Under the pieces are notes generated by a model that saw only the letters and a program-made list of their open reading frames with translations, made no database searches and had not been told where the DNA came from. Below, piece by piece: positions 41,485 through 58,037 of a stretch of DNA of 64,000 nt (position 1 is its first letter; each line of letters opens with the position of its first letter). Position numbers and translations under genes: made by a program. The stretch spans positions 267 to 64,266 of the forward strand of contig JAZDKY010000075.1 in NCBI GenBank assembly GCA_043802525.1, given 5' to 3'. The stretch is from a bacterium (GTDB taxonomy: Bacteria; Verrucomicrobiota; Kiritimatiellia; CAIVKH01).

Positions 41485-41797
41485 GAGCGAAGATACAAAA
41501 TCCGGGCCTGTCACCGATGTTTTTTTACCGCAAATCGCACAGCGCGGCAGATCCGCAACCGAAGAGGAAACCGCAAGAAAACGCAAAACACGCAAGAAGG
41601 AATCACGCGAAGAACGCCGAGGCGCCCATCAAGCGGGTTATAGGCCCGCTCGCAACGCATACGCGCCCGCCTGCAGCGCTATGCGAAGCATGGAGGGCAA
41701 GTAGGCGTTTCGGGCGAGGGTGGAGCGCTTATGCCTGCCCTGCGTAATCTTAGCGAAGAGGGGCGTTATCTGCGGTTCACTCTTATCCTGAGGGGCT

Positions 41798-42665: not shown

Positions 42666-43004
42666 TCCTACGCTCCCTTCGGGAGCTACGGATAGCGCGG
42701 CTCTCCTACGCTCGCGTTGGGAGCTTCCGCCTTCGCCGACAAGCTACGGCGGACAAGTCGGATGACAAGCCATCCTGTAAGATGCGGTGAGAGTTGAACT
42801 TGGCGCCGAAGGCGCCGCCCTTCAGCGGAGCTCGAGACAGGTGGCCGACCGTGTCCCGCCGCCGCTCGTTCTGAGCGAAGGCGGATATTCCTTCTTCGGG
42901 GGGCGCGCGAAATTTATCAAACGACCAGCTTCACCGCCGGTGCCCATGGCTCTTCTCTGAAACCGTGCCGGATACGCCGTACGAGCGCTGGTTGGGGCCC
43001 GCAG

Positions 43005-44472: not shown

Positions 44473-44856
44473 TATGGAGTGCGGCGGCTTGCCGCCGCCA
44501 TGTTGGGCGCAGCTTGCTGCGCCTTGACAAGGCGCAGGCAAGTCGTGGCGAAGCCCGATCAGGGCTCACGCGTGACCTGCGCACTCCATGACAACGAATT
44601 TCTCACACGTTCCTTGCGCGAGTCGGTTTGACTTGCTGCATGACGCATTCCTCCGAAACCGATGCCCTGATGTACCGCGCCATCTGGATCTCCGATGTCC
44701 ACATCGGCTCGCCGTCCTGCCGGTCAGGTCGTTTGAGATCTCGTACGCGAGGGAAAAATCGGACGCCGAAAGCCGCGTGGCCACGGCGAAGTTCAAGCAC
44801 TGAGAAATGCATGGGAAAGGGACAGAAGGGACGTAATGGACGCAAGGGATTGGATA

Positions 44857-45285
44857 TTACTTGTTCCTTTGCGCTAGTCGTGCCTTGGTCATGCGCTCGC
44901 GGAGGCCGCCATCCTGGACGAAATTCTTTTCCAAGGCTGCGATCTGCCGGTCCAGGAGTGTGTTGGTGACCTTGATGAGGCCGAGAATGACATTCGAGCA
45001 GATCGCGGGATCCTCATGCTCAATGCCCTTCTTGAAGGTTCCGTAGTTGGCGCCATCGGTTCGGCAAAGCTTCGAGAGGCGTTTCGCATAACGATGCGTC
45101 TTTGGCCACGCCTCTATCCCGCGCGGCCTCATAAAATCGAGATAGTCGTTGAGGAGTTCCTCGAGACTGCCCCGCGCGACGTTGGTGAGTTTCAGTTCAA
45201 ACTCTTTCGAGGTTCCTGAAACCTGGCTGCCCTCCGCGATATTCTGTTTTCCAGACCTCGCAGCTTGAACCCGCCTTCGCCAAGG
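44857..45285 (-). pseudogene. N-terminally truncated four-helix-bundle (TIGR02436-like) gene with C-terminal suffix domain; no start codon upstream of the NIAEG motif
   Basis: The open frame reads ...SGKQNIAEGSQVSGTSKEFELKLTNVARGSLEELLNDYLDFMRPRGIEAWPK... The frame opens just after a TAG at 45286-45288 with no ATG before NIAEG. It is flanked by inverted GGGAC-type short repeats (44805-44850; 45437-45475). Confidence 0.55.
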
Positions 45286-45471
45286 CTACGGCGGGCAAGC
45301 CATCTGATCATGGGTCCGGCTCCGTTTGTCGATGAACCGGTCACAGAAATAGACCGTGGCATCATAGACAATCTCAGCCTTCTGAAACGAAAGCAGATCA
45401 CGATAGCCACCATGTGGCGGAATGAAGCGCTCAGTCACTTAGGTCCCTTCAGTCCCTTTCGTCCCTTCTTT

Positions 45472-46590
45472 TTACGGCAGGAACTTCCCTTTCTTCAGTT
45501 TCTCGGGCAGGTAGTGGTCCAAAACGAAATTCAGGCCGTGTTTGGCGAAGGCCTGCTGCTCGATGCGGACGCCGAGCTTGAGCATATGCTCGAGGGCGTG
45601 CTGCCATTCCTTGTGGTGCCGGATGAAGGGGTCGTTCTTCAGCGCGTCCTTCGCGCGTTTGATGTCGGCTTCTTCGAGCGGGTGTGTCGCATCCTCGAGT
45701 TTGTAGTCCGCGATGTCCTGCGGTGTGACACCGAGGTAGTGGACCTGCGGCACGCAGAAGAACCGGTTGATGTGCGCGGCCTGGCCGGAGCCGACCTTCA
45801 GCGTGCGGTAGATGTTGCAGTAGCCGTACGGGTCGCCGTCGGTGAAGGCCAGCACCGGCACCTTCTGGTCGTCCGCCAGCCGGCGGATGAAACGCCTGCA
45901 CGCGCGGGTCGGCACACCGCTCATCGAAATGAGAATGCAATTTGCCTTCTCATAATATCGGTGATGGACGAGGCGCTGGAAGAGCGACGCGGTCTCGACG
46001 GTGAGGATGAGCTTGGCCTTCGTCTGGAACCGCAGGTGCTCGACCCGCGAGGGGATGCTCCACGCGCCCGTGCCGAGCTTCGTGCAGTCGATCTTGATGT
46101 CCTTGCCCGTGGCGGGATCGCGGTCGATGACGACAAGCGGCCCGCACACGTCGCCGCCGCGCTCCTCGGGAATGTAGCCGAGCTGCTCGCGGTTGATCCC
46201 GAGCATCGCCTCGATGTCGTCCAGCAGCGTGTCGCTCTCCGGCTGCTCGTTGAACCGGCACTCACCCCAGCTCTTGCTGTTGTAATAAATCTCGCGCTTC
46301 CCCGCGATGTCGTCCTTGTCGAGCAGGTCGTTCTTCGTCGTCGACAGGAGCCGCATCGACTGCGCGAACGTCTTGACCGTGTTGTACGAGAGCGTCCGCG
46401 TCGCGACCTTGTTGAGGATCTCGAAATGCCCGCGCTTCGTGTCGTACTTCACGTTCGCGAGCGAGCGGATCGGGAACCGCATCGACGGCTTCCGTTTCTT
46501 CTTGATGATGTCGGTGTGGATATCGCCCGCCACGTCGACGATCTTCCTGGACGCGGCCTGCTTGGAAATGACTTCGGGTGCTTCAGCCAT
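45472..46590 (-). CDS. top6A: DNA topoisomerase VI subunit A (Spo11/Top6A)
   Basis: Catalytic-Tyr region GKREIYYNSK. Toprim E in LILTVETASLFQRL. DxD in VLAFTDGDPYGYCNIY. RBS AGGAGT; start MAEAPEV. Confidence 0.8.
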   Translation of the reverse strand: MAEAPEVISKQAASRKIVDVAGDIHTDIIKKKRKPSMRFPIRSLANVKYDTKRGHFEILNKVATRTLSYNTVKTFAQSMRLLSTTKNDLLDKDDIAGKREIYYNSKSWGECRFNEQPESDTLLDDIEAMLGINREQLGYIPEERGGDVCGPLVVIDRDPATGKDIKIDCTKLGTGAWSIPSRVEHLRFQTKAKLILTVETASLFQRLVHHRYYEKANCILISMSGVPTRACRRFIRRLADDQKVPVLAFTDGDPYGYCNIYRTLKVGSGQAAHINRFFCVPQVHYLGVTPQDIADYKLEDATHPLEEADIKRAKDALKNDPFIRHHKEWQHALEHMLKLGVRIEQQAFAKHGLNFVLDHYLPEKLKKGKFLP

Positions 46591-46609
46591 GGTATTACTC
46601 CTGATTTTT

Positions 46610-46740
46610 GACCGCAGAGGACCCGCCTTCGCCAATGACTACGGCGAGGCAAGCGCAGAGGCGCGCGGAGGTTCGGAAGTTCTCGGAAAACCTCTGCGCA
46701 TCTCTGCGTCCTCTGCGGTTCAATTCTCCCCCATTCAACC
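46610..46740. repeat. MITE-like element with (CTCTGCG)n / CGCAGAGG inverted termini and core CCCGCCTTCGCCAATGACTACGGCGAGGCAAGC
   Basis: The core motif CCGCCTTCGCC..CTACGGCG..CAAGC recurs at 42725-42780 and 45262-45300. The right arm recurs at 57990-58030. Confidence 0.55.
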
Positions 46741-46754
46741 AACCAAGCGCAAGA

Positions 46755-47543
46755 CTAGGAACAGGTCAGGCGGACTCCGAAGTAGGTGAAATTCACTTCG
46801 GGGTTGGTCTGCAACCGGGCGAACTCCCGCATCAGGTCGGTCTTGTCGTGTTCCGTGACATAGCCTTTGCTCATCAGGTTGTCCGCGCCGGACAGCAGCA
46901 GGGCATCGAGATAGTCGAGCCAGATGCGGCGCCGCTCCGGCTCGCGCCGCGTGTCGATGATCCGCGCCGGGGCGGCGCGAATCTCCCGCGCACCCGCGCG
47001 GCGCGCGAGGTCCTCTAGTTTCGGGCCGACGAACGGATCGCCGCCTGCTTCCTGCTGGAAGCGGTTGAACCGCGACCACCAGTCCGTGATGACGGCGCTT
47101 GGCGGATCAAACCGGAACGTGTTGTTGTCCACTTCCGTGCAGACCAGTTTCCCGCCCGGCTTCAGCACGCGCAGCGCCTCGCGCATCACGGTGACAGGAT
47201 CGGAAACGTGCTCGAGCATCCAGATCGTGATGACGCGGTCGAATGACGCGCCTGCGAACGGCAGGGCTGTCGCATCGCCCTGCATCAGGCTGATCGAGTC
47301 CGGCAGGCGCGCATGTCCCGCTGCGAGGTGGTCCGCGCTCCGGTCGAGGCCCGTCAGCTTCACGCCCGGCCAGCGCTCGCGGATGATGTCGAGTTCCGCG
47401 CCGACGCCGCACCCGATCTCGAGCAGGCTTGCCACGCCGGCCAGATCCCAGCCATCAAGAACGCCCGGCGCAAGAATCCTTGCCTGCGCGAAGAGCCGTT
47501 CCTGTTCGGCCTTTGAAAACCCATGGATGTAGTGTTCAGTCAT
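46755..47543 (-). CDS. Class I SAM-dependent methyltransferase
   Basis: Motif I LEIGCGVGAEL. Motif post-I/II DRVITIWMLEHV...LKPGGKLV. Confidence 0.8.
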   Translation of the reverse strand: MTEHYIHGFSKAEQERLFAQARILAPGVLDGWDLAGVASLLEIGCGVGAELDIIRERWPGVKLTGLDRSADHLAAGHARLPDSISLMQGDATALPFAGASFDRVITIWMLEHVSDPVTVMREALRVLKPGGKLVCTEVDNNTFRFDPPSAVITDWWSRFNRFQQEAGGDPFVGPKLEDLARRAGAREIRAAPARIIDTRREPERRRIWLDYLDALLLSGADNLMSKGYVTEHDKTDLMREFARLQTNPEVNFTYFGVRLTCS

Positions 47544-47870
47544 CTCTTAATCGTAATCTTAATCGTACTCGTAATCGTAATCATGATTAGCGCTCGTCGC
47601 CGGTCACATACGCAGCACCGTCCTCGTGCACCCGCCATGCCGAATTGCTCCTGATCAAGCCGGCCGGCATGGAAACAACGGCAAGGAGTCTTTATTCCCC
47701 TCGTGCAACGAGTTCAATGCAGGGGTTGTAGATATTCAGTTTCTCGTGGTCGAAGAGCTGTAGCATGAGGGGTGCTTCTGATGTGATTACGATTAGGATT
47801 AGGATTACGATTACGATTACGATTACGATTACGATTACGATTAGGATTGGGGCCGAGATTAGGATTATGA
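47541..47870. mobile_element. Hexanucleotide-repeat-armed element (left arm (CGTAAT/CTTAAT)n 47545-47585; right arm (GATTAC/GATTAG)n 47775-47862) enclosing a deleted four-helix-bundle gene remnant (47692-47769, minus strand, MLQLFDHEKLNIYNPCIELVARGE*)
   Basis: The arms are inverted tandem hexamers. The internal sequence CGTCCTCGTGCACCCGCCATGCCGAATTGCTCCTGATCAAGCC... aligns with the 55576-55650 junction of the intact copy. The remnant N-terminus aligns with MNSKPLFDHEKLEVYQLSIEF of the 55587-55982 gene. Confidence 0.6.
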
Positions 47871-47934
47871 GCGGAAGAAGTCCCGCAAAGTCCAGTTTGA
47901 TGTATTTGGAGTGTCGCGATATGGTGCTCCGCAC

Positions 47935-48588
47935 ATGGACAACCTGCGTGACCTGATCGCCAACAATCGGTCCTGGGCTGCGAAGATGGTGGGCGCCGAC
48001 CCGTGCTTTTTCACCCGGCTTGTGCGCCAGCAGTCGCCGAAGTACCTCTGGATCGGCTGCTCGGACAGCCGCGTGCCCGCGAACGAGATCGTCGACCTCG
48101 ATCCTGGCGAGCTGTTTGTTCACCGCAACGTTGCCAACATCGTTGTCCATACGGACCTCAATTGCCTGTCGGTCATCCAGTACGCGGTTGACGTGTTGAA
48201 GGTGGAGCACGTCATGGTGTGCGGGCACTACGGTTGCGGCGGCGTGCAGGCCGCGCTGCTCGACAGCAAGCTGGGCTTGATCGACAACTGGCTCCGGCAC
48301 GTCCGGGATGTGATGGACAAGAACGCCGCCGTGCTGGCCAACGTGCCGGACGAACGTCGCCGCATTGACAAGCTTTGCGAACTCAACGTGATCGAACAGG
48401 TTCTGAACGTCTGCGAGACCACCATCGTCCAGGCCGCGTGGGGCCGCGGGCAGAAGCTCGCCGTCCACGGCTGGATCTACGGCCTCGCAGATGGGTTGGT
48501 GCGGGATCTTGGAATGAGCTGTCGCGGTGAGTTGGAACGTGTTCCGGCCTACCACGCCGCCGTGGCCGCAGCGGCCGGCGGCGCCTGA
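47935..48588 (+). CDS. Beta-class carbonic anhydrase
   Basis: CSDSRVP, HRNVANIV, HVMVCGHYGCGG are the Zn-ligand motifs of beta-CA. Confidence 0.85.
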   Translation: MDNLRDLIANNRSWAAKMVGADPCFFTRLVRQQSPKYLWIGCSDSRVPANEIVDLDPGELFVHRNVANIVVHTDLNCLSVIQYAVDVLKVEHVMVCGHYGCGGVQAALLDSKLGLIDNWLRHVRDVMDKNAAVLANVPDERRRIDKLCELNVIEQVLNVCETTIVQAAWGRGQKLAVHGWIYGLADGLVRDLGMSCRGELERVPAYHAAVAAAAGGA

Positions 48589-48850
48589 ATGTTGCGCGAA
48601 GCCGGTGAAACTGTCGGAATTCATTACAAGTTTACACTTTCGCCCTTCCGCGCAGTGGTTGACCTGTCGAAAAGAATCACCTCTTATAACTTCCAAGGGA
48701 GCGGGTTACGGAAAGACGCATGAAAACGGTAGCCCGGTGGTGTGATATCTGCTGGCTGTGGCGCCGAGTCTATGCGTGCCATTGATGTGCGTTTGACGGA
48801 TCAAGCAATCTCAACATGAGGAACGAACCATGAGAGCCTACGGGAAGACC

Positions 48851-49504
48851 ATGCGGCTGATACCCTGCATCATCGCCATGCTAGCCATCGCCACTGTGCC
48901 GGCCATGGGCATTCCATGGATCAACGAATTCCATTATGACAACGTCAGCACCGACGTCGGCGAGTTTATTGAAATCGCCGGCGAGGCGGGGACGGACCTG
49001 TCGGATTACACCCTCTACCTTTACAACGGCACGGGCGGCGCGGTCTACGACACGCTCGCCCTCTCCGGTGTGTTGGCCGACCAGCAGAATGGGTTTGGCA
49101 CGCTGGCGTTCGATTATCCTGTGAACGGCATTCAAAACGGACCGTCGGATGGTTTCGCCCTTTTCGACAGTGACTCAGCGACGGTGATCCAGTTCCTCAG
49201 CTACGAGGGGTCGTTTACGGCAGTGGATGGCGTGGCCATCGGTCTCACCAGTACGGATGTTGGGATTGCCGAAACGACGCCAACTCCCGTCGGTCATTCG
49301 ATGCAACTCACGGGCACCGGAAGTCATGCGAGCGATTTCACCTGGTCGGGTCCCTTGGCGGCGACGAAGAACGGCGTCAATGCAGACCAGCAGTTCACAT
49401 GCGTGTCGGTCCCGGATTTCACGCCGACCTTGGGCATCCTCCTGCTCGCGTTGGCGGGGATGAGCGCGTTTCGCAGGCTCCCGGCAGGCTCACGCAGCGG
49501 TTGA
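48851..49504 (+). CDS. Secreted lamin-tail-domain (LTD) protein with a PEP-CTERM-like C-terminal anchor
   Basis: Signal peptide. INEFHYDNVSTDVGEFIEIAG..DLSDYTLYLYNG is LTD-like. C-terminal VPDFTPTLGILLLALAGMSAFRRL resembles a PEP-CTERM sorting signal. Confidence 0.55.
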   Translation: MRLIPCIIAMLAIATVPAMGIPWINEFHYDNVSTDVGEFIEIAGEAGTDLSDYTLYLYNGTGGAVYDTLALSGVLADQQNGFGTLAFDYPVNGIQNGPSDGFALFDSDSATVIQFLSYEGSFTAVDGVAIGLTSTDVGIAETTPTPVGHSMQLTGTGSHASDFTWSGPLAATKNGVNADQQFTCVSVPDFTPTLGILLLALAGMSAFRRLPAGSRSG

Positions 49505-49689
49505 CGCGAAGTCTGCTCCGCTGCCCCCGTCACTCATCTCATCGGTCCGTTGCGCTCCTGGGCCGTTGCCGTTGCCGGGCCTGCGAGCAGGCGAACCACG
49601 AGGGGCCCATGCGCCCGGTCGTTCTCGGTTTGCGTTGCGCCCTGATGGCGGTCATATTTCCTCAGGAGCGCCTGCGAGAGGAGGCGGTT

Positions 49690-50502
49690 GTGTCCCACAA
49701 GAACCACGACAAAGACGATGCGCACAAAGGGCTGCGCAAAAAGGATTACGAGAAGGAGTTGGCCAAGCTTCAACTCGAGCTGGTCAAGTTGCACGAATGG
49801 GTGCGGCACAAAGGCATGAAAATCGTTGTCCTCTTCGAGGGACGCGATGCCGCGGGCAAGGGCGGCGTGATCAAGCGGATCAGCCAGCCCCTCAACCCTC
49901 GCGTCTGCCGCGTCGTCGCGCTTGGCGTGCCGACGGAGCGTGAAAAGACGCAGTGGTATTTCCAGCGCTACGTGCAGCATCTTCCCGCTGCGGGCGAGAT
50001 GGTGTTGTTCGACCGCAGCTGGTACAACCGCGCGGGCGTCGAACGCGTCATGGGTTTCTGCACCGAGGAGGAATACCAGGAATTCCTGCGGGCCTGCCCC
50101 GAGTTCGAGCGGATGCTCATCCGTTCCGGCGTCATCCTTATCAAGTACTGGTTCTCCGTCAGCGACGAGGAGCAGGAGCAACGGTTCCAGGCCCGCATGG
50201 AAGACCCGACGAAACATTGGAAGCTGAGCCCGATGGATGTGCAGTCGCGCTCGCGATGGATCGACTACTCCAGGGCCAAGGACGTGATGTTCGCACACAC
50301 GGACACGAAACTCTCGCCCTGGTTCGTGGTGGAGGCCGACTGCAAGCGGCGCGCGCGGCTGAACTGCATTGCCCACCTGCTGAGCATGATTCCGTACAAG
50401 GACGTGACGCCGGTGCCGATCAAGCTTCCGCCCCGCCAGCCGCGCAAGGGTTACGAACGCCCGCCAAAGTCGGATCAGACCTACGTGCCCGAGAAATACT
50501 GA
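49690..50502 (+). CDS. ppk2: Polyphosphate kinase 2 (start assumed GTG with RBS GAGGAGG; alternative ATGs at 49609 or 49645)
   Basis: LELVKLHEWV..KIVVLFEGRDAAGKGG (Walker A), FDRSWYNRAGVERV, the lid-loop region and the overall PPK2 length. Confidence 0.8.
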   Translation: MSHKNHDKDDAHKGLRKKDYEKELAKLQLELVKLHEWVRHKGMKIVVLFEGRDAAGKGGVIKRISQPLNPRVCRVVALGVPTEREKTQWYFQRYVQHLPAAGEMVLFDRSWYNRAGVERVMGFCTEEEYQEFLRACPEFERMLIRSGVILIKYWFSVSDEEQEQRFQARMEDPTKHWKLSPMDVQSRSRWIDYSRAKDVMFAHTDTKLSPWFVVEADCKRRARLNCIAHLLSMIPYKDVTPVPIKLPPRQPRKGYERPPKSDQTYVPEKY

Positions 50503-50546
50503 TCAGAAACTTCAACCGTGGTTCAATTCTTCCTTCGGAACTCCAT

Positions 50547-50915
50547 ATGCGATCACCCATCAATGTTCTCTTCGTCTGCGGACGCAACAACCGGCGCAGT
50601 CCGACCGCCGGGAGGATCTTCAAGCGCGACCGTCGCATGAACATCCGCGCGGTCGGTTTGGGCGACACCAGCCCGCGGCGGGTGAAGGAAGCCGACCTGC
50701 GCTGGGCCCACCTCGTGCTCGTCGTGGAACGGAAGTACGCCGGCCGCCTTCGGACGGCCTTTCCAAACGTCGACCCGTTCCCGCCCATCGAATCCCTCGA
50801 CATCTCCGACGAGTACACCTTCATGCAGCCCGAACTGGTGGACCTCCTGAAATCCAGCGTGGCATCCGCGTTGGAGACCTATTACGAAGACCGGGTGGGC
50901 GATGGTTCTCCTTAG
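50547..50915 (+). CDS. Low-molecular-weight phosphotyrosine-phosphatase/ArsC-like small protein (CX5R(S) P-loop); paralog of 54657-55055
   Basis: VLFVCGRNNRRSPTAG is the LMW-PTP CX5R motif. Only about 120 aa long. Confidence 0.55.
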   Translation: MRSPINVLFVCGRNNRRSPTAGRIFKRDRRMNIRAVGLGDTSPRRVKEADLRWAHLVLVVERKYAGRLRTAFPNVDPFPPIESLDISDEYTFMQPELVDLLKSSVASALETYYEDRVGDGSP

Positions 50916-51204
50916 CCGGGCGTTCGTACCGGTCGGGCTCTGCGAACTGAAGTTGCAGGACCGTACGGCCCCCGGCGGTGGCCGGTTCGTTCGGAGCGGA
51001 AAGTTTTAGCCGCAAAAGAACGCAAAGAATCCGCCCCTTATTGCCCGTTATTTCTGAGGGCTATGGGGGTGGAGCCTCTTTGCGCTCCTTCGCGGCTCAA
51101 ATTCGTGACGATTCGTGTCCATTCGTGGTTTGCTTCTCCGTGTAAGGTTCCATCTTTCACTTCGAGTTCTTGACTCATAATAGTATGTCACGTATGTACA
51201 GATC

Positions 51205-51771
51205 ATGAACGTGATCCGGTCAGCCCGGGAACGGCGCGGCTATTCGCAACGGGAACTGGCGAAACGGGCTGGTGTTTCGTTCCGCTGCGTCCAGCAATTG
51301 GAACGTCCCGGGCACAACTGGAGCGTCTCGAGCCTGAAGCGTGTCGCCCGAGCCCTGGCCGTGCCCGCGGGAGGGTTGCGCTATCACTTGGACTATCCCT
51401 TTAGAATTCCGCCCGATTCGATCGAGGACATTTCGCTGCGCATCCATGGCGAGGAGTTTTCCTCGTGGAAGCTTCACGTGTTCAACTTCGTGGACCGTTT
51501 CCGGGCGACGCGTGACCCGGACCTGATCGCCAGGCCGCCCATGCCGGAACTGGACCCGCGCCTGCACGCCTTGTTGGCCGGCGTGGTGGAAACGCTCTGC
51601 GCGGAAATCGATCGGTCGGCGCCGTCCTGGTGCGCCGGGATAGATACACTTCCCGAGCCGTGGTTCGTCGCCGGTATTGAGAACCTGAAGCCCGCGGCGC
51701 TCGTTGAATCGCCGGTTCGTTTCAGGACGCGGAACATCTTCGTGCTGGGGAACTTCCTGGAGAGGGCATAG
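51205..51771 (+). CDS. XRE-family HTH protein with an uncharacterised C-terminal domain
   Basis: N-terminal RRGYSQRELAKRAGVSFRCVQQLE. The 130-aa C-terminal domain has no recognised motif. Confidence 0.6.
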   Translation: MNVIRSARERRGYSQRELAKRAGVSFRCVQQLERPGHNWSVSSLKRVARALAVPAGGLRYHLDYPFRIPPDSIEDISLRIHGEEFSSWKLHVFNFVDRFRATRDPDLIARPPMPELDPRLHALLAGVVETLCAEIDRSAPSWCAGIDTLPEPWFVAGIENLKPAALVESPVRFRTRNIFVLGNFLERA

Positions 51772-51778
51772 CGCCAAC

Positions 51779-52291
51779 ATGTTGGATAACGCGACCATCC
51801 AGAAACTCTTCGAAGCCCTGAACCGGGCGCTCAAGGCCCGGAAGGTCGTGGGTGAAATCGGTCTCTGCGGGGGCGCGGTCATGTGCGTGGTTTTTGAAGC
51901 CCGCGTGTCGACCAAGGACGTCGACGGCATTTTCGAACCCACGTCGGAGATTCGAAAAGCGAGCCGGGAAGTCGCCCGTGAGATGGGCGTTCCGCAGAAC
52001 TGGCTGAAGGACGTCGCGAAGGCCTATTTCCTGAGCGATCCGCCGCGGGTCCCGGTCATGGACCTCTCCAACCTGCGCATCTGGGCCCCGAGGGCCGACT
52101 ACATGCTGGCCATGAAATGCGTATCCGCCCGGTTTGACACGCACGATACCGACGACGTGAAGTTCCTGGTCCGTCATCTTGGACTGAAAAAACCGGGCGA
52201 CGTCTTCGAGATCGTGGAGAAGTACTATCCCCGGAAGCAGGTTCCGTCCAAGACCCAAATCCTGATCGAGGAAATCATGCAGAAAAGCTAG
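51779..52291 (+). CDS. Minimal nucleotidyltransferase (Pol-beta fold; MntA/AbiEii-like)
   Basis: GLCGGAVMCVVFEARVSTKDVDGIF fits hG[GS]x9-13DxD. 8 nt downstream of the XRE gene, so probably co-transcribed. Confidence 0.55.
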   Translation: MLDNATIQKLFEALNRALKARKVVGEIGLCGGAVMCVVFEARVSTKDVDGIFEPTSEIRKASREVAREMGVPQNWLKDVAKAYFLSDPPRVPVMDLSNLRIWAPRADYMLAMKCVSARFDTHDTDDVKFLVRHLGLKKPGDVFEIVEKYYPRKQVPSKTQILIEEIMQKS

Positions 52292-52451
52292 CCGCGAAAA
52301 ACACAAAAATAAACGCCCCATAACCCTCGGAATTTCGAAGGTGGGTCATGGGGGTGGGGGTTATGGTGTTTTTCGTGGCCATTCTGCGCTATTCCGCGCC
52401 GGCCCTTTCAAGCTCTCGTGTCCACTCATACGCGAACCAGGGCTGTTCGCG

Positions 52452-54290
52452 TCAGCGCAGTCGGCCGCGGGATACCCAGTCCTTGCGCGGGAAAGCGTGA
52501 AAGATCATGCGGCTATCCTCCTCGCGCACGAGGATGCGCGCTTTACCGCGCTTCAGCTTGCGCCAGTAGAAGCCGCTGATGGATTCGTGCGGCAGAAGAG
52601 CTCGCGTGACAGGTGACATGGACGCGTAGTAGTCGAGGGCGCTGGTCAGACTTTCGGCCGGAATCGGAAGGGTGGGGAGATGCTCGCGTATCCAGCTTGA
52701 CGTGTCAGTCCCGGGGCTATCGTCGTTCCACACAAGGATTTTCGCCTGTGCAAGGCCGTGTCCAGGGTCCCGCACCATGTGCCACACGCGTACCACGGGG
52801 GCGGCCGGTTCGGGGGGCAGGGGCGTCGCGTCGTCCTCCGCCAGATCGAGATGCTGCTCGATCGTCCTGGAGACCTCCGGCTCCGGCGGCAGGTGGAGAT
52901 CGAAAATCGACACGGTTTGGCCGGCGGCCTGTGTGCATCGGCAAAGAAAATCCAGATTCTCCAGCATGAAAGGTTCGGACCACTGCTTCCAAAGTTGGCG
53001 AATCAGCGCGCTCTGGTCGTCATTCAGCGGAACGAAGGGCGTATCCGGGCGCATGTTGGACAGCGATATTTCCTCGGCCACCATCCGAAGCACCTGCGCG
53101 TCCGGCGCGTTGTCCAGCGCGGCCTGGGTAAAAAGACGGCGGGTTCCGGCGTGATGGGGCCCGCGCAGATAGGGCGCGATGTGGCGTGACAGCGCCGTCC
53201 TCGTTTTCTCGCCCTCGCGCGTCACGGGCATGCGGATGAGCTTCGAGGGATGGTTGAGCATGTCGGCGAGGAGCGGTCGCACCCAGGGTTTGAGCCTGTC
53301 GCCTGAAATCCCGTCCGTCCGGGCGAGTTCCTGAAACAGAGCCACGTACCAGAAGCATTCGCTGGTGGAGATCATCCCCGCAGCTTCATCCGACATGTTG
53401 TCGGCAAGGGTGTACCGTTCCCTTTCTTTCCGGGCGAGACCTCTCAGTTGAGTGCACATGTTGGTGCGCATCTTCGCCAGGAGGAGGAATACGTGAAAGT
53501 CCATGGCTGTTTTCTTCGGATCCAGTGCCTGATCGAGCGTCTCGAACAGAAAAGTTTCCGTCATTTCCACGCGGTGGACGATCTGGTTGTAGCCTTCCGC
53601 GGCGTCGCGGAAGATCGGCATCAGCGTCTCCATGCGATGCCGGGCCTCGACGAGCAAGGCGTCCAGCGATTCGGCTGGATCCTCGACATCCAGGAGCAAA
53701 ACGGCCGCGTCATCGGAGAAGGGCAGGACCAGCAGCAGGATATCCCGCGGGGCGAGCGTGGGCGCGAAGTCCTCGGCGAGTTCCATGATAAAATCAGGAT
53801 TGCAGGCAAAAGCTGTCAACAGCGGGCTGTTGGCGGTCAGCGTCATACTGCGGCGGAACTGGTCCAGGCAAATCCGCTCCCTGTCCTTGTCGTCATCGAG
53901 CAGGGCGGAGATGGCGTCAATCGCATCAAAACCGAACCGGTCGATATGGTATTTGATTCCTCCGCACCAATGGAGAAAGTCGCGTAGGGCGTCCGACGAT
54001 GCGACGTCCCGGGCCCGTGCCAGGTCAAATACCTTGGCGACCGTTGAAAGCAGTGTCAGGTCCGATTCGGCATAGACCAGGTCATCGCCGGTCCCGAGCC
54101 ACTCGACCATGGCGGCGCGAAACCGGGTTTGGATTTTCAGCGACTTGGGCGACGCCAGCCAGGCTTGGAGGCGCCTCCGGCTCTCCGCGTAGCCGGCCAG
54201 TGCCCTGCTGACGTGTTCAGCCCCATACCGGGCCGACGAGAATGCCATTGGCCACGGCTGGATAAAAGTGGGTCGTGGTTTCTTGCTCAC
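52452..54290 (-). CDS. Hypothetical 612-aa cytoplasmic protein, no recognisable domain
   Basis: Long ORF with protein-like composition and no TM or signal peptide. No catalytic motif recognised by eye. Confidence 0.4.
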   Translation of the reverse strand: MSKKPRPTFIQPWPMAFSSARYGAEHVSRALAGYAESRRRLQAWLASPKSLKIQTRFRAAMVEWLGTGDDLVYAESDLTLLSTVAKVFDLARARDVASSDALRDFLHWCGGIKYHIDRFGFDAIDAISALLDDDKDRERICLDQFRRSMTLTANSPLLTAFACNPDFIMELAEDFAPTLAPRDILLLVLPFSDDAAVLLLDVEDPAESLDALLVEARHRMETLMPIFRDAAEGYNQIVHRVEMTETFLFETLDQALDPKKTAMDFHVFLLLAKMRTNMCTQLRGLARKERERYTLADNMSDEAAGMISTSECFWYVALFQELARTDGISGDRLKPWVRPLLADMLNHPSKLIRMPVTREGEKTRTALSRHIAPYLRGPHHAGTRRLFTQAALDNAPDAQVLRMVAEEISLSNMRPDTPFVPLNDDQSALIRQLWKQWSEPFMLENLDFLCRCTQAAGQTVSIFDLHLPPEPEVSRTIEQHLDLAEDDATPLPPEPAAPVVRVWHMVRDPGHGLAQAKILVWNDDSPGTDTSSWIREHLPTLPIPAESLTSALDYYASMSPVTRALLPHESISGFYWRKLKRGKARILVREEDSRMIFHAFPRKDWVSRGRLR

Positions 54291-54354
54291 GAGTGTGCTG
54301 CATAGCCGGTCCGCCGCTCCATTTCAAGCCGGCGATTCGGAGAGGCGGGTACGC

Positions 54355-54490
54355 AGGTCGGATGGTCACGAAGACGCACCGGCCTTCGCCCCGCCTCGGA
54401 GGCGGGACTTCGGTGAGGCAAGCAAGAGAAGGCCGCCCTTGGAACCCGGGGATCTCTTCTTCGTGCTTCTTGTGCCTCTTCGTGGCTATC
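54355..54490. repeat. MITE-like element, homolog of the 29790-29975 copy
   Basis: TCACGAAGACGCACCGGCCTTCGCCCCGCCTCGGAGGCGGGACTTCGGTGAGGCAAGCAAGAG...CTTCTTCGTGCTTCTTGTGCCTCTTCGTGGC. Confidence 0.6.
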
Positions 54491-54656
54491 TCTGTTGCTG
54501 CTTTACTGTTTCTTCCATTTGGACGGATATGAGGCAGGCTTGCCCTCATGAACCATCATCAATGTGCCACGTGCCCCGTCCCGCCTTGGCGGGCAAGTGT
54601 GACGCGGCTACAGGCAAACATTTAACGCCTTGGCGGGATCTGCTACGCTCCGGTTC

Positions 54657-55055
54657 ATGGCTGGTCCTCTCAACGTCCTCTTTGTCTGCGACAGCAAGAA
54701 ACGGCGCAGCCCCACCGCGGAGCGAATCTTCAAGCGGGACCGCCGGATGAACGTCCGCGCGGCGGGCGTTGGTGACAGCAGTTCGTGTCGCATGAAGGAA
54801 GGGGACCTGCGCTGGGCCCAGCTCGTGCTCGTGATGGAGCGGAAGTACGCCGGGCGACTTCGGGCGGCCTTTCCGAATCTCGATCCATTCCCGCCCATCG
54901 CATCCCTCGATATCCCCAATGACTACGCCTTCATGCAGGAAGAGCTGATCCAACTCCTGAGAGTCACCGTAACCGCTGCCTTGGCCGCCTATCACGCCGC
55001 TGAAGATTCAACCACGAATGGGACCCGCCTCCGTCCTGCTTCCGACGCGGGTTGA
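54657..55055 (+). CDS. LMW-PTP/ArsC-like small protein, paralog of 50547-50915
   Basis: LNVLFVCDSKKRRSPTAERIFKRDRRMNVRAAGVGD. About 70% identical to the first copy through the first 100 aa. Confidence 0.55.
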   Translation: MAGPLNVLFVCDSKKRRSPTAERIFKRDRRMNVRAAGVGDSSSCRMKEGDLRWAQLVLVMERKYAGRLRAAFPNLDPFPPIASLDIPNDYAFMQEELIQLLRVTVTAALAAYHAAEDSTTNGTRLRPASDAG

Positions 55056-55140
55056 TTCGTGGTTGAGCTCCCGATTTCGCGAAGCGCGGTTCACTTTCGC
55101 GCAAGTAATTGCAGATCAAGCTGAGTCGTAGCGACCCAGG

Positions 55141-55575
55141 GGATGTATGTCCTCCGCCTCGTAATCCTAATCCTAATCGTAATCGTAATCCTAATCGTAC
55201 TCGTAATCGAATATCCTCGTGCCGCCATGGCCGGTATCGGAGAGTGCAGAGCGGTTATGGCCCGGAGTTTCGATTTCGATTACGATTAGGATTACGATTA
55301 CGATTAGGAATCAGATGTAGACATGGGCCTTGTCGAGCATCCTCTTCAGAGTGCTGACGAGTCTTCGACTCGTCTTTGTCCTTCAGGTCGAGGGCGAGGT
55401 GGGGGGCTATGTCCTCCGCCTCGTAATCCTAATCCTAATCCTAATCGTAATCGTAATCCTAATCGTACTCGTAATCGAATGTCCTCGTGCAGCCATGGCC
55501 GGTATCGGAGAGTGCAGAGCGATTATGGCCCGGATTTTCGATTACGATTACGATTACGATTGGGATTACGATTGG
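55141..55575. repeat. Two tandem units of about 170 bp (55141-55310; 55421-55575), each hexamer inverted arms (CGTAAT/CCTAAT)n ... (GATTAC/GATTAG)n around a 65-bp core, separated by a degenerate copy of the topoisomerase VI-B 3' end (55316-55415)
   Basis: The units are over 90% identical. The core reads GAAT[AG]TCCTCGTGC[CA]GCCATGGCCGGTATCGGAGAGTGCAGAGCG. The 55316-55415 segment aligns with 56109-56215 (shared TCCTTCAGGTCGAG, TCGAGCAT; translates LDLKDKDE.. against LDLKEKDEDRIVKDLKKMLEKTHLEV). Confidence 0.7.
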
Positions 55576-55586
55576 GAGGGCAAGCC

Positions 55587-55982
55587 TCATCCCCACGTTG
55601 CGCTGTCTTCATGAACGCGCATGGGCGAATTGCTCTTGATCAAACCAACAAGCATGGAGACGATCCGCGCCAGCATGACCTTGCCCTCGACGATTGCATC
55701 TGCATCCACTTTCCTTTTCGCGACGAGAACGTCGAGACACGCCGCGCATTCCAACGCCGATCCTCGCGCTATATCGAAAAAGCGACACCGGTCGTTTTCA
55801 GTGTAGCGGCCATTGCCTTCAGCCGTGTTCAGCGGAATGGAGGTGGAAGCCCGATCAATATTGTCGCGCGCAGCAAGCGTACGCGGGACATCAGCTACGA
55901 TGGGTTCTAGCCAGGCGATGAATTCGATGGAGAGTTGGTAGACTTCGAGCTTTTCGTGGTCGAAGAGAGGTTTGGAATTCAT
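55587..55982 (-). CDS. Four-helix-bundle protein (TIGR02436 / 23S rRNA intervening-sequence protein family)
   Basis: 131 aa. FDHEKLEVYQLSIEF...IPLNTAEGNGRYTENDRCRFFDIARGSALECAACLDVLV is the family signature. Confidence 0.75.
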   Translation of the reverse strand: MNSKPLFDHEKLEVYQLSIEFIAWLEPIVADVPRTLAARDNIDRASTSIPLNTAEGNGRYTENDRCRFFDIARGSALECAACLDVLVAKRKVDADAIVEGKVMLARIVSMLVGLIKSNSPMRVHEDSATWG

Positions 55983-56059
55983 GGTCTTCCCTCCGTTTCG
56001 TAATCGTACTCGAATTCCGTTCCTGCCGCTCCGTTCGGTGGTGAGGGACGTAGGGCGTT

Positions 56060-56106
56060 TATACTTCTGATATTCGATTACGATTACGATTACGATTACG
56101 ATTACG
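56060..56106. repeat. (ATTCGATTACGATTACG...)n hexamer array, right arm of the element, abutting the top6B stop codon
   Basis: ATTCGATTACGATTACGATTACGATTACGATTACGAATCAG. Confidence 0.7.
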
Positions 56107-56108
56107 AA

Positions 56109-57875
56109 TCAGACTTCCAGATGCGTTTTCTCGAGCATTTTCTTGAGGTCTTTGACGATCCGATCTTCATCCTTTTCCTTCAGGTCGAGAATCTGCCTCA
56201 ATCCCAACGCAAGGTGCGGGATGTAGAGCTCGATGTAGTTCTTCTTCCTCGCTTCCTCCAACTCGCGGTTGCGTTTGTGGAGGAAGACGGACAATCGCCG
56301 ACCGCATTCCTGCAGGCCTAGTGTGATCTCATTGAGGATTTCCTGGTAGCTGGCGAGGGCGTCCTTGCTCTCGCTTGTGAACGGGACCCAGACGCTGGCC
56401 ATGTGGATCATCAATACGACCGGGCCTTGCGGCAGCCCGTCTCTGGGCTGGTTCAGGCCGTACGATTTCCAGTTTACGCCGCACGTCGCTTTCGTGATCG
56501 CGCAGGCGCCGGGCTGGTAGAGCAGAGGAACCCGGTTCGCAAATCGCAGCAGCCGCACGGGCTCTTCCTTGCCCATGTCCTGGTCGGTATTTTCCGAGGG
56601 TCGCGTGTACGCGACGCCGATCTCGATCTGAAACGGGTTGCCGCGGTAGACCGACGGGTCGCGCGTGAGGGACGTGAAAAAGTCGGCTTTGAATTCTTTC
56701 TGCAATCCCGCAAGAATCTGTGTCTCGCCAATCGGCGACAAACAGTCCGTTGGTGGCCGCATCAACTTCGTTTCCTGGATCGCCTTGTACAAGGCCTCGG
56801 CTTCCTGGTGCGCGACGCGGGTCGGGTTCGCTTTCGGGTTCAGGCCGGCGCGTTCGCAGATCTGCAGCGCGGTGCCGGTACTGACGCGGGAGAAGTCGGT
56901 CGACAACGCCCCGCGCAACGTGCGCGATTCGGAGTCCTTCAACATCTGCATCAGCATCCCGATCTCCACGCCGTGCGGATGCGGCATGATCTCCTGCGCC
57001 GGCAGCGGGACCTGTTTGGTGGCACGGAGGTAGGTGATGCGGAGTTCTGCTTTTGCTGGTTTTTCATCCGATGTAGGCCGCGTGACCCCACGCGGCGCGG
57101 ACCCCGCCGGGTCGGCGACCCGGCCTACAACGAGACGGTAGTGCAGCGTCACATGCGGGTTCACGATCGCGCACTGCTTCACGAATTCGTCGACGGACTG
57201 CTTGCCCCGCTGGTACGCGGCTTCCATGTCGATCGAGACACACGTGCCGTGCTTGTACGTGGAGGCTTCCCCGTCCGATTTCCCTTCCGCGTTCACGGCT
57301 TGGAACGTCGGCAGCCACTCGGCTTCCTCGTCGGTCAGGATGGTAGGCTTATTCTGGCGCGTATCGATCTGCACGGCCATGGAATGCGCCTTCTTGCTGC
57401 CCGAAATCTTCGACAGGATGCGCGTCGACGAACCGGTCGTGAGCTGGCCGTACATGCCCGCTGCGCTGATGCCGATGCCCTGCTGGCCGCGCGACATGCG
57501 GAGGCGGTGGAATTTCGAGCCGTAGAGCAGCTTCGCGAAAATCTTCGGGATCTGGCTCTTCACGATGCCGGGCCCGTTGTCGGTGATCGTCACGCGGAAC
57601 CGGCTCTCGGAAATCTGTTCCAGGTCGATGGAAAGTTCGGGGAGGATGTGGGCCTCCTCGCATGCGTCGAGCGAGTTGTCGACCGCCTCCTTGACCGCGG
57701 TCAGCAGCGCGCGGCGCGGGCTGTCGAACCCGAGCAGGTGCCGGTTCTTGAGGAAGAATTCCGAGACCGATATGTCGCGCTGCCGCGCGCCCATGCTCTC
57801 GGCGGTCTCGACCTTCGGTTCCTTCTTCGGCTTCGGTGCCGGGGCTGGAGGGGACGGTGTGGGCGCTTTCTTCAT
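56109..57875 (-). CDS. top6B: DNA topoisomerase VI subunit B (GHKL ATPase)
   Basis: Bergerat-fold motifs EAVDNSLDA (N box), ITDNGPGI (G1), KLLYGSKF, SRGQQGIGISAA (G2), followed by H2TH and transducer regions. Start MKKAPTPSPP. Confidence 0.85.
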   Translation of the reverse strand: MKKAPTPSPPAPAPKPKKEPKVETAESMGARQRDISVSEFFLKNRHLLGFDSPRRALLTAVKEAVDNSLDACEEAHILPELSIDLEQISESRFRVTITDNGPGIVKSQIPKIFAKLLYGSKFHRLRMSRGQQGIGISAAGMYGQLTTGSSTRILSKISGSKKAHSMAVQIDTRQNKPTILTDEEAEWLPTFQAVNAEGKSDGEASTYKHGTCVSIDMEAAYQRGKQSVDEFVKQCAIVNPHVTLHYRLVVGRVADPAGSAPRGVTRPTSDEKPAKAELRITYLRATKQVPLPAQEIMPHPHGVEIGMLMQMLKDSESRTLRGALSTDFSRVSTGTALQICERAGLNPKANPTRVAHQEAEALYKAIQETKLMRPPTDCLSPIGETQILAGLQKEFKADFFTSLTRDPSVYRGNPFQIEIGVAYTRPSENTDQDMGKEEPVRLLRFANRVPLLYQPGACAITKATCGVNWKSYGLNQPRDGLPQGPVVLMIHMASVWVPFTSESKDALASYQEILNEITLGLQECGRRLSVFLHKRNRELEEARKKNYIELYIPHLALGLRQILDLKEKDEDRIVKDLKKMLEKTHLEV

Positions 57876-58037
57876 AGGGGCACAGCGTAGTTTCCAACGA
57901 TTGGAAAAATCACGAAGAAAAGTTCCAAGCGTTGGAAGAAATTGAACCACGGAGGGAAGAGGAGGTTCTGGAGACCGGGCTCGCCATTCCCCAACCTCCG
58001 CGAACCTCTGCGCCCTCTGCGGTTCAAATTGATGCGG

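Follow-up and report, generated by a model that had tools for sequence, protein, structure and literature searches.

The 64 kb stretch of DNA analysed here (hereafter, the window) contains several states of one module built around a gene for a four-helix-bundle (4HB) protein: a single working copy, two that are dead and three derived hairpins that lack the gene. On balance, we regard this stem-enclosed gene cassette as the non-ribosomal, intergenic counterpart of the intervening sequences (IVS) of 23S rRNA that carry an open reading frame (ORF), inherited mostly vertically and rarely mobilized in trans. The unit from which the arms are built is specific to the protein subfamily, namely, a TAATCN hexamer in the 131-aa subfamily and a nonamer with a GGGAC core in the subfamily with a suffix domain. 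The features of the window are as follows (strand is given where one applies).

44815-44849: arm of the suffix-type cassette, a GGGAC-core 9-mer array distal to top6A, forming inverted repeat I10/I12 with 45434-45469
44857-45438, minus strand: full-length 4HB gene with a suffix domain, now a pseudogene, with both ends present and an N-terminal ORF at 45286-45438
45271-45300, minus strand: 30-nt palindromic REP-like insert with an in-frame TAG, read from the sequence, which splits the gene between ..THDQM and VQAARSGKQ..
45434-45469: arm of the suffix-type cassette, a GTCCC-core 9-mer array (TRF period 9/18) whose end lies 2 nt from the stop codon of top6A
47545-47587: (TAATCN)n arm of the internally deleted cassette (I1-I9, 43 nt, 88% complementarity), starting 1 nt from the methyltransferase start codon
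47608-47757, minus strand: what is left of a 4HB gene of the 131-aa subfamily, namely, residues 6-23 and 95-130 (tblastn E = 7e-6 and 3e-3)
47785-47871: opposite arm of the deleted cassette, (NGATTA)n with 10.7 units and a TRF score of 107
55159-55309: hairpin A, gene-less (arm 55159-55209, 60-nt core, arm 55271-55309; inverted repeat I1, 53 nt, 87%)
55310-55420, minus strand: diverged pseudo-copy of the 3' end of top6B (its last ~40 codons), between hairpins A and B
55421-55577: hairpin B, gene-less, 93% identical to hairpin A (direct repeat D2, inverted repeats I5 and I6)
55587-55982, minus strand: intact 4HB gene, 131 aa (TIGR02436, E = 2e-16; PF05635, E = 7.5e-18)
55996-56107: hairpin C, with a short arm at 55998-56015, a core and a second arm at 56075-56107; its end lies 1 nt from the stop codon of top6B

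The intact gene lies downstream of top6B, in the same orientation, and matches the profiles of TIGR02436 (60.1 bits; cutoff 24) and PF05635 (65.1 bits; cutoff 33.8). The original prediction took 55141-56106 to be a single intact arm-gene-arm unit; the gene is indeed intact, but the region consists of three complete hairpins, with the gene located between B and C. The cores of the adjacent hairpins A and B keep the C-terminal codons of the gene: that of A encodes ..RPWRHEDIR on the minus strand, a remnant of the 4HB C-terminus, and that of B encodes ..RPWLHEDIR. The predicted core motif common to the copies, CCTCGTGC..CCGCCATG, was recovered and corresponds to this coding remnant (..W-R-(V)-H-E-D). 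Hairpin C was delineated from direct repeats D1 and D3, inverted repeats I9 and I13 (92-95%) and 5.5 perfect units in TRF, and the top6B pseudo-copy from direct repeats D4 and D5 against 56073-56189 (78-87%), an alignment and the translation ..IAPHLALDLKDKDE... The cassettes of the window are flanked by genes for top6A, a methyltransferase, a carbonic anhydrase and top6B. The 4HB gene is the only ORF between the arms, and no transposase is encoded inside the element. A repeat scan of 44500-48000 and 54900-56300 picked up only the arrays themselves, the top6B fragment and some short matches at chance level. No rRNA match was detected from 44000 to 57000 of the window, the cassettes are not inserted in a 23S rRNA helix (9, 25 or 45), and the arms of the window have no match in Rfam.

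The two dead copies belong to different subfamilies. In the copy at 47545-47871, the predicted internal deletion is borne out, but ~54 codons are left rather than 24, with the translation ..LFDHEKLNIY.. and ..VVSMPAGLIRSNSAWRVHED; the intact and deleted gene copies of the window share 47-61% amino acid identity. The arms of the deleted cassette close a stem of ~45 bp in the RNA fold (z = -5.4), and no flanking direct repeat was seen by eye at this copy. The third copy, predicted to lie at 44800-45480, has the GGGAC-type arms (26-27 nt, 85% complementarity, paired in the RNA fold with z = -5.0) but is not truncated at the N-terminus: both ends of the gene are present, and it was killed by the 30-nt insert, a sequence with a single exact occurrence in the window and related copies at 46622 and 42726. 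The C-terminal part of this gene matches TIGR04258 (69.5 bits; cutoff 40), which assigns it to a different subfamily, and the reconstructed 183-aa suffix protein matches PF05635 and is 93% identical to the protein P0121.

The tandem TAATCN/NGATTA hexamer arrays of the window are confined to 47545-47850 and 55159-56107, and all of them fall at 4HB sites (TAATCNTAATCNTAATC matches 40 times in the 64 kb, compared to 0 in shuffles). As predicted, they form inverted arms, of 39-53 nt with 85-95% complementarity; across the copies of both subfamilies, the arms span 26-53 nt at 85-95% complementarity, forming an enclosing stem like that of an IVS. Outside the window, arrays accompany 4HB genes in dozens of related genomes, across Verrucomicrobiota, Kiritimatiellia, Lentisphaerae and Planctomycetota, and are conserved. 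At 79 genome loci of the 131-aa subfamily from the PVC group, the median score of the best complementarity between upstream and downstream sequences is 44, compared to 19 for controls, with scores of at least 40 at 68% of the loci against 0.4% of the controls, and strict TAATCN arrays lie no more than 400 nt from the gene at 66 of the 79. Within 442 kb, 151 of 162 TAATCN arrays adjoin the gene, a reverse test that is biased because the loci were preselected for 4HB genes; no tandem-armed inverted repeat enclosing any non-4HB gene was detected in the 802 kb scanned, again at loci preselected in this way. Among 67 loci of the suffix subfamily, 49% carry at least three in-phase GGAC 9-mers (0/240 controls), and clear arrays are missing in half. 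TAATCN arrays are absent from 252 kb of suffix-subfamily loci, and GGAC 9-mers from all 79 loci of the 131-aa subfamily. Two further paralogues have (GGAGTG)n and (TTAGCN)n arms.

These controls and the subfamily specificity largely refute the notion that the arrays are generic microsatellites or terminator hairpins that merely happen to lie near 4HB genes. There are observations in its favour: other gene-less hairpins with tandem arms occur in the window (5932-6040, 11535-11666 and 25690-25753), and TAATCN arrays unaccompanied by 4HB genes occur in AT-rich viral contigs. Against this, an inverted partner exists for no more than three of the 120 viral arrays, two of these three in GC-rich contigs (GC 0.61 and 0.67), whereas the other 117 are unpaired, most of them being inside ORFs; furthermore, the T-run signature of terminators is absent, and terminator-like sites never coincide with the arms and are no more numerous than in shuffles. 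Coincidence is therefore highly improbable.

The arms typically consist of 4-6 units (median length, 32 nt), with the unit logo T.93 A.83 A/C T.92 C.93 N. At 31 of 32 loci, one arm mirrors the other in the order of its unit variants (Wilcoxon p = 6.5e-9). RNA folding of the arm-core-arm units, a check proposed with the original prediction, closes the arms with z-scores of -5 to -6. Mismatches in the arms show no bias towards G:U pairs (30, compared to 20 A:C; p = 0.2), so that pairing at the RNA and DNA levels is not distinguished.

Genes of this family, that of the 23S rRNA intervening-sequence proteins, are small and very common in bacteria. The AlphaFold model of the 131-aa protein (pLDDT 88) comprises four helices, and its best Foldseek matches in the PDB are 2GSC and 2RLD (TM 0.73-0.77 normalized by the query, 0.82-0.87 by the target), followed by Avd, the accessory protein of diversity-generating retroelements (DGRs), in 8UB7 and 4DWL (TM 0.68-0.70 and ~0.8, respectively; 13-15% sequence identity); an hmmsearch against PDB gave 8.5e-12 for this protein. 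Avd is basic, in contrast to the 131-aa subfamily, which is acidic (pI 5.6, net charge -3). In another explanation, the 4HB protein, as an oligomer, would bind the repeated units in its arms, with each subunit contacting one conserved 5-nt core, and would thereby autoregulate or package its own RNA, similarly to the ring-shaped RNA-binding proteins that recognize short repeats at regular spacing. The structures of the relatives 2GSC and 2RLD contain five chains each, Avd is a pentamer and a member of an RNA-protein complex, and the suffix subfamily is basic (pI 9.6); the number of units per arm, the structure of the unit, with a conserved core and a free spacer position, and its covariation with the protein subfamily also fit. 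However, the covariation is explained equally well by joint descent of the gene and the arms, solo hairpins persist without the gene, and the acidity of the 131-aa subfamily speaks against it; we find this explanation doubtful.

Many of the cassettes are old. In two synteny groups, of 8 and 6 genomes, dN/dS is 0.06-0.17 at dS of ~2, and the arms are kept in all members; thus, the arms persist despite the saturation of synonymous sites, and the protein is under purifying selection. The selfish nature implied by the original prediction is not established, given that many copies are old, syntenic and under such selection; such lasting synteny and strong purifying selection are no less compatible with a domesticated host gene than with a selfish element. 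The cassette could indeed be an immobile, domesticated gene with a conserved regulatory or stabilizing stem, its various contexts reflecting ordinary genome rearrangement. All 80 retrieved genes are near full length by tblastn, and none was found on viral contigs, in line with domestication. The dead copies and gene-less hairpins of the window argue against it, as do three near-identical copies in one metagenome-assembled genome (MAG), with sharp boundaries and junction repeats, and the finding that the same orthologous sites hold different subfamilies or nothing, and we consider it quite unlikely. In particular, the orthologous geneA/DUF1552 site has three different occupants, and the region 3' of top6B varies in the same manner: in locus L001, a canonical cassette separates top6B from top6A, and the unit variants of its arms follow almost the same order as those of the window; L161 has a suffix-type gene, with no arrays visible; and in L163 and L165 the site is empty, with spacers of 4-7 nt, as was to be looked for in relatives according to the original prediction.

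That prediction also suggested that the module may be mobile. Occasional mobility is directly supported in one related lineage, which has terminal inverted repeats of 22-25 bp (GGGCGCATGGCAGTTCTG..) outside the arrays and, in 3 of 5 complete copies (L053, L040 and L011), direct repeats of 8-10 bp at the junctions (CGAAGCCGA, CCGCAACC and GTGATGGGTG). Three copies of this lineage in the MAG ADurb.Bin070 (L053, L069 and L074) are 98.7-99.4% identical and have unrelated flanks. Because the terminal repeats sit outside the arrays, the arrays may not be the mobility signal in this lineage. For the window, the support is indirect and consists of the decayed copies, gene-less hairpins, local duplications and the polymorphic occupancy 3' of top6B. 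No target-site duplication was seen in the copies of the window.

The terminal-repeat lineage would fit a non-autonomous transposon in which the units would be subterminal protein-binding sites, like the arrays of short motifs at the ends of some transposons, recognized by a transposase from another locus, with the 4HB gene as a passenger or an accessory factor. The occurrence of the gene in many contexts (61 different ones among 80 loci), the gene-less hairpins that look like deletion derivatives and the lack of a wobble-pair bias in the arms are all compatible with such a transposon. However, among the 63 loci that passed the score filter and were tested, junction direct repeats were found only at 3, all with terminal repeats; like the window, the other 60, which have arrays alone, show neither target duplications nor terminal repeats beyond the arrays. 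Also contrary to a transposon, no transposase is linked to the cassettes, copies remain syntenic across genomes with saturated dS, and the mirrored order of units is kept in the arms, which would be needless for arrays of binding sites. Altogether, the transposon interpretation is a minority possibility.

We therefore return to the comparison with the IVS. In Coxiella burnetii, the IVS has a 28-bp terminal stem around the S23p ORF that is cut by RNase III, and ORF-bearing IVS are regarded as selfish elements that were sporadically distributed and then vertically inherited (PMC4990558). As in the IVS of Leptospira and C. burnetii, an ORF of the PF05635 family is enclosed by terminal inverted repeats forming a long stem. 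Unlike those IVS, the cassettes are found between protein genes rather than in rRNA; they have gene-less hairpin derivatives and gene-between-hairpins layouts; and, in one lineage, they have terminal repeats distinct from the arrays as well as duplications at the junctions. A further, putative difference is that their arms are built from a 6- or 9-nt unit that is repeated in tandem and specific to the subfamily. MITE-like transposons with a passenger gene share the inverted ends, the lack of a transposase and the deletion derivatives, as well as, in the one related lineage, the 8-10 bp junction repeats and multiple near-identical copies. They differ in that most cassettes, those of the window included, have no target duplication and are ancient syntenic residents, that the arms are short-unit arrays rather than unique terminal sequence, and that the passenger always belongs to one protein family under purifying selection. 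Avd has a homologous four-helix-bundle fold, and its homology to PF05635 has been noted (PMC10053308); neither a reverse transcriptase domain in the scanned neighbours nor a template/variable repeat pair next to the gene was detected, and the cassettes thus do not classify as DGRs. REP/BIME palindromes and intrinsic terminators are likewise intergenic hairpins at gene ends, but the cassette stems consist of 30-50 bp of tandem units that enclose or flank a specific gene, with no T-run or Rfam match. They are thus neither the short GC-rich hairpin with a T-run behind it that marks a terminator nor a high-copy REP palindrome of 20-40 nt. A cassette with subfamily-specific tandem-unit arms is apparently undescribed, no description having been found in the literature search; ancestry of this kind is not new, being the architecture of ORF-bearing 23S rRNA IVS (PMC4990558) moved to intergenic sites.

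In the IVS-like explanation that we favour, the module is a PF05635/TIGR02436 (Avd-like) 4HB gene enclosed by two inverted arrays of a short, subfamily-specific unit. In read-through transcripts, the arms would pair, placing the ORF within a stem of 30-50 bp that, by analogy with the 23S IVS, could be cut by RNase III, releasing a discrete 4HB mRNA. Such release may allow the cassette to be tolerated, with little burden, at gene boundaries or within operons, such as between top6B and top6A. Copying would be rare and rely on machinery supplied in trans, and most copies would then be vertically inherited for a long time; the arrays would double as breakpoints for local duplication and rearrangement. 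The decay of copies to solo hairpins is seen in the window. The layout seen at ~10 of the 79 loci and for the intact gene of the window, where the gene lies between complete hairpins and not inside one, is a form that we could not obtain from the canonical one by simple recombination, and it counts against this explanation. So do the suffix-type gene of L161, which has no visible arrays, and the half of the suffix-subfamily loci in which clear arrays are missing.

A broader, rather unlikely scenario is that the 4HB proteins and their cognate arms constitute a self-contained system, in which an Avd-like oligomer would recognize the units repeated in the RNA or DNA of its cassette and direct processing or copying by host enzymes (RNase III, reverse transcriptase or transposase); the 23S rRNA IVS would then be the members that landed in rRNA, and the Avd of DGRs would descend from such a cassette protein. 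If this is true, 23S rRNA intervening sequences would be part of a much larger, mostly intergenic family.

The part of the window that carries genes for four-helix-bundle proteins (4HB; PF05635/TIGR02436) belongs to a contig with a GC content of 61% and a gene content resembling that of the PVC superphylum. Long TAATCN/NGATTA arrays were identified in the window by Tandem Repeats Finder and a repeat finder at two sites only, 47545-47871 and 55159-56107, and a degenerate three-unit hexamer pattern yielded 40 matches, at both array sites, and none in shuffled sequences. We denote a 4HB gene with inverted arms of tandem units a cassette and distinguish subfamily 1 (131-aa proteins, TAATCN/NGATTA arms) and the suffix subfamily (TIGR04258, arms of 9-mers with a GGGAC core).

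Cassettes, hairpins and 4HB genes in the window
55587-55982, minus strand: intact 131-aa 4HB gene; TIGR02436 60 bits (cutoff 24), PF05635 65 bits (cutoff 33.8)
55159-55309: hairpin A, 60-nt core
55421-55577: hairpin B, 60-nt core, 93% identity to A
55996-56107: hairpin C, abutting the true stop codon of top6B
47545-47871: deleted cassette retaining paralogue residues 6-23 and 95-130, ~54 codons
44800-45480: suffix-type 4HB copy, full length; TIGR04258 69.5 bits; GGGAC-core 9-mer arms

The 131-aa protein belongs to PF05635/TIGR02436, with profile scores above both cutoffs, and its AlphaFold model is a predicted four-helix bundle (pLDDT 88) that, among solved structures, comes closest to 2GSC and 2RLD and, next, to Avd, the accessory protein of diversity-generating retroelements. 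The original prediction described a single arm-gene-arm unit at 55141-56106; actually, there are three complete hairpins, with the intact gene placed between B and C. The final ~40 codons of top6B, which encodes a topoisomerase VI subunit, recur in diverged form between A and B. Hairpins A and B look like internally deleted cassettes because their cores encode ..RPW(R/L)HEDIR, in agreement with the C-terminal ..S-x-x-R-V-H-E-D of the family. The deleted copy at 47545-47871 retains more of the gene than the 24 codons initially counted, and the suffix-type gene, initially taken to be N-terminally truncated, is full length and was killed by a 30-nt palindromic insert (45271-45300) with an in-frame TAG. 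When the arm-bearing units are folded, the arms are predicted to pair at all three sites of the window, with z of -5 to -6 compared to shuffles. Cassettes in the window are separated from the neighbouring start and stop codons by 1-2 nt.

The insert in the suffix-type gene represents a palindromic, REP-like motif of ~30 nt, CCGCCTTCGCCRA..CTACGGCGGRCAAG, with related copies at 46622-46655 and 42726-42760 that occupy intergenic spacers; this motif resembles a miniature insertion element, here inserted into another element. A non-tandem 40-nt inverted repeat (41665-41704/42361-42400, 90% complementarity) encloses a 122-aa ORF, 41798-42166 on the minus strand, and is thus a further case of long arms around a small gene.

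The association between 4HB genes and arms extends far beyond the window. We collected 80 subfamily-1 loci on contigs from one genome per species, from Verrucomicrobiota, Kiritimatiellia, Lentisphaerae, Planctomycetota and a few other groups, and, taking 350 nt on either side of the gene, scored the best complementarity of the upstream with the downstream flank, with other positions in the same loci as controls. A cassette is also present in a cultured bacterium, Novipirellula sp. SH528 (L060). The median score is 44, compared to 19 for the controls, and scores of 40 or greater are reached by 68% of the loci and 0.4% of the controls. The arms, with a median length of 32 nt, share one hexamer in all subfamily-1 loci (logo T.93 A.83 A/C T.92 C.93 N), and a strict TAATCN array lies within 400 nt of the gene in 66 of 79 loci. 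Among the 162 TAATCN arrays detected in 442 kb, 151 adjoin a 4HB gene and the remaining 11 are more than 1 kb away; the two distant arrays that were inspected are a solo hairpin (locus L015) and an array beside a gene remnant (L013). The outcomes that would speak against the original prediction, namely, lack of enrichment of 4HB genes at the arrays or arrays that are generic microsatellites, are thus largely contradicted in these genomes, and the association of gene and arms is solid and general.

About 50 subfamily-1 loci follow the canonical order, (TAATCN)n-gene-(NGATTA)n, and about 10 resemble the window in having a complete hairpin on each side of the gene. The latter layout could not be derived from the canonical one by recombination between arms: inversion restores the canonical arrangement, and deletions between direct repeats never produce the observed order. 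In 31 of the 32 informative loci, unit variants follow one another in mirrored order in the two arms (Wilcoxon p = 6.5e-9, with arm extents picked from the best alignment); therefore, the arms are true inverted repeats rather than merely two arrays of one unit.

TAATCN arrays are also common in giant-virus and phage contigs (L167-L286). There they occur without 4HB genes and in AT-rich genomes (median GC 33%), and 117 of 120 arrays are unpaired; an inverted partner is present only in L224, L245 and L265, the second of which contains an armed unit (1605-1899) whose core is 250 nt long and in which no 4HB gene was detected. No subfamily-1 relative was found in viral contigs. Most of the viral arrays of at least four units (78 of 128) fall within long ORFs and therefore look like ordinary coding microsatellites. 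What is diagnostic is therefore not the hexamer by itself but its inverted pairing in GC-rich genomes of the PVC type.

The arm unit is specific to the protein subfamily. In 80 metagenomic loci of the suffix subfamily, there are no TAATCN arrays in 252 kb, and three or more in-phase GGAC 9-mers are located within 160 nt of the gene in 49% of the loci, compared to 0 of 240 controls; such 9-mers are absent from every subfamily-1 locus. Other arm units, (GGAGTG)n and (TTAGCN)n, were encountered incidentally at two more distant paralogues. Across 802 kb scanned, a sample biased by the selection of loci for 4HB genes, tandem-armed inverted repeats enclose no other gene. Because arm unit and protein subfamily co-vary, an oligomeric, Avd-like 4HB protein might read the repeats of its own cassette; however, shared inheritance of gene and arms accounts for the co-variation just as well, and the 131-aa subfamily is acidic (pI 5.6) whereas the suffix subfamily is basic (pI 9.6).

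Three additional hairpins with tandem-unit stems, all intergenic and with gene-less loops, are present in the window at 5932-6040 (CACGAAA-type 9-mers), 11535-11666 (12.7 copies of the 7-mer AACCAAT, facing a short TGGTTAT arm) and 25690-25753 (AGGTKTC 7-mers). Possibly, these are solo hairpins left by other 4HB subfamilies; a search of L001-L160 for 4HB genes with CACGAAA, AACCAAT or AGGTGTC arms gave essentially no matches. Unpaired short tandem arrays, with TTCGTG-type 9-10-mers, GAAGAAC and CCAAGAAC as units, are located just 5' of start codons at 29947-29973, 41567-41598, 51101-51127 and 54456-54484 in the window, and similar ones at L015 1500-1525 and L049 1397-1436; such arrays seem to make up much of the PVC intergenic spacers here. 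A CRISPR-like or telomere-like nature of the arrays was dismissed, given that the units are 6-9 nt long and spacer-free.

The 80 subfamily-1 loci represent 61 contexts at the DNA level, and both long residence and turnover are apparent at individual sites. Two synteny groups, of 8 genomes (Chthoniobacterales) and 6 genomes (Limisphaerales/Verrucomicrobiales), have flanks that are only ~70% identical; in both, dS is saturated (~2), dN/dS is 0.06-0.17, and the arrays are kept in every member, so that protein and arms have been maintained for a long time by selection or concerted evolution. An orthologous spacer, flanked by geneA, which is conserved, and a DUF1552-like gene, is occupied differently in four related genomes: by 4HB genes of two different subfamilies, with GGAGTG arms in one genome (L033 1062-1552) and TTAGCN arms in another (L019 1137-1490), by a solo TAATCN hairpin in a third (L015 1407-1491) and by an unpaired tandem array only in a fourth (L049 1397-1436).

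The site next to top6B is variable as well. In L001 (1254-4598), a canonical cassette lies exactly between top6B and top6A and is all that separates them; Top6A is 91% and Top6B ~70% identical to the window proteins, and the arms of the two cassettes hardly differ in the order of their unit variants. In L161, which has the closest Top6B relative, a suffix-type gene without arrays lies 3' of top6B, and in two other relatives (L163 and L165), this site is empty, with spacers of 4-7 nt. In the window, top6A (45472-46635) and top6B (56109-57950) are split at the cassette and lie 9.5 kb apart, with genes for a methyltransferase, carbonic anhydrase, PPK2, an HTH protein and a 612-aa orphan in between. 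This block looks like a later insertion or rearrangement at the cassette. The unit consisting of a hairpin and the 3' fragment of top6B is duplicated with a period of 268 bp, and the arrays coincide with rearrangement in the window.

Two paralogous ORFs of ~120-140 aa (50547-50915 and 54630-55055; about two-thirds identical over a 123-residue alignment), the second of which has no match in Pfam or NCBIfam, bracket 3.7 kb with the HTH gene, a 195-aa ORF and the 612-aa ORF, which has no domain match. This pair may be the duplicated boundary of an inserted block.

Evidence of mobility differs between lineages. An extra terminal inverted repeat, GGGCGCATGGCAGTTCTGTTGG, is present outside the arrays in L053, L069, L074, L040, L011, L079 and L010.

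Cassettes with GGGCGCATGGCAGTTCTGTTGG ends
L053, 2894-3449
L040, 2904-3470
L011, 2889-3463

Three of these copies (L053, L069 and L074), all from one MAG, ADurb.Bin070, are 98.7-99.4% identical over ~520-570 bp and have unrelated flanks, and direct repeats of 8-10 bp occur at the junctions of 3 of the 5 complete copies with GGGCGCATGGCAGTTCTGTTGG ends. This is the signature of transposition with the enzyme provided in trans. Array-only cassettes, those of the window included, are not flanked by such repeats, and around array-only cassettes, potential target duplications show no excess over shuffled pairings. Movement of the proposed module is thus directly supported for the GGGCGCATGGCAGTTCTGTTGG lineage, with its junction repeats and near-identical copies, and only indirectly for the window itself.

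The only described relative of the cassettes is the ORF-bearing intervening sequence (IVS) of 23S rRNA. The origin and purpose of these IVS and their ORF have been unsettled since the early 1990s; in Coxiella, the IVS contains a PF05635 ORF within a 28-bp terminal stem that is cut by RNase III, and is regarded as a selfish element that was vertically inherited afterwards (PMC4990558). Cassettes and IVS have in common the protein family and a design with the ORF inside a stem, but the cassettes lie between protein genes, and no rRNA was found in the 44-57 kb part of the window; hence the cassette is IVS-like in design but, by location, is not a 23S IVS. One related lineage, with GGGCGCATGGCAGTTCTGTTGG ends, behaves like MITEs, but the cassette in the window is not demonstrably a MITE because there is no target duplication, nor is it a diversity-generating retroelement, given the lack of a reverse transcriptase among the neighbours scanned and of a template/variable repeat pair at 44500-48000 and 54900-56300. 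In Rfam, the arms gave nothing beyond chance matches below threshold, and PADLOC and PHROGs gave no matches. A literature search for 4HB/IVS proteins with inverted, tandem or MITE repeats retrieved only the Coxiella IVS paper and notes on Avd homology; no paper describing tandem-unit arms around 4HB genes was found. In a CRISPR-discovery paper, the abbreviations of the figure on CRISPR-associated proteins spell out '23S rRNA IVP' (PMC10910872); as a matter of speculation, the repeat arrays beside these genes could have a part in this association.

We infer a mechanism in which the arms would pair in read-through transcripts and, by analogy, the paired arms would be processed by RNase III, freeing the 4HB mRNA. 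Such processing would let a cassette sit tight against neighbouring start and stop codons and would likewise permit residence inside an operon, such as top6B-top6A. A consensus scan detected neither promoters nor terminators in or adjoining the arms; the lack of a sigma-70-type promoter is weak evidence consistent with read-through transcription. Arm mismatches include 30 G:T and 20 A:C, a split that does not separate pairing at the RNA level from pairing at the DNA level. Upstream neighbours share the orientation of the 4HB gene in 74% of the loci and downstream neighbours in 68%; these values are no higher than estimated for adjacent bacterial genes generally and are, therefore, uninformative on read-through.

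Among the matches listed, most contigs with 4HB genes are only 0.5-2 kb long, which may reflect assemblies breaking at the arms, and some 4HB gene calls run into the arrays, with N-termini such as ..LILIVLVIVI...

The PF05635/TIGR02436 proteins rank among the most common unexplained small proteins of environmental bacteria; two homologue searches returned at least 7982 and at least 8000 significant matches. The subfamily-specific cis-architecture turns a 'hypothetical protein' into a testable unit, predicts a processed transcript and a cognate protein-repeat pair, and allows dead copies and solo hairpins to be recognised. It also flags the arrays as breakpoints, here at the top6B-top6A split, and provides annotators with a signature for a widespread class of elements in PVC genomes.
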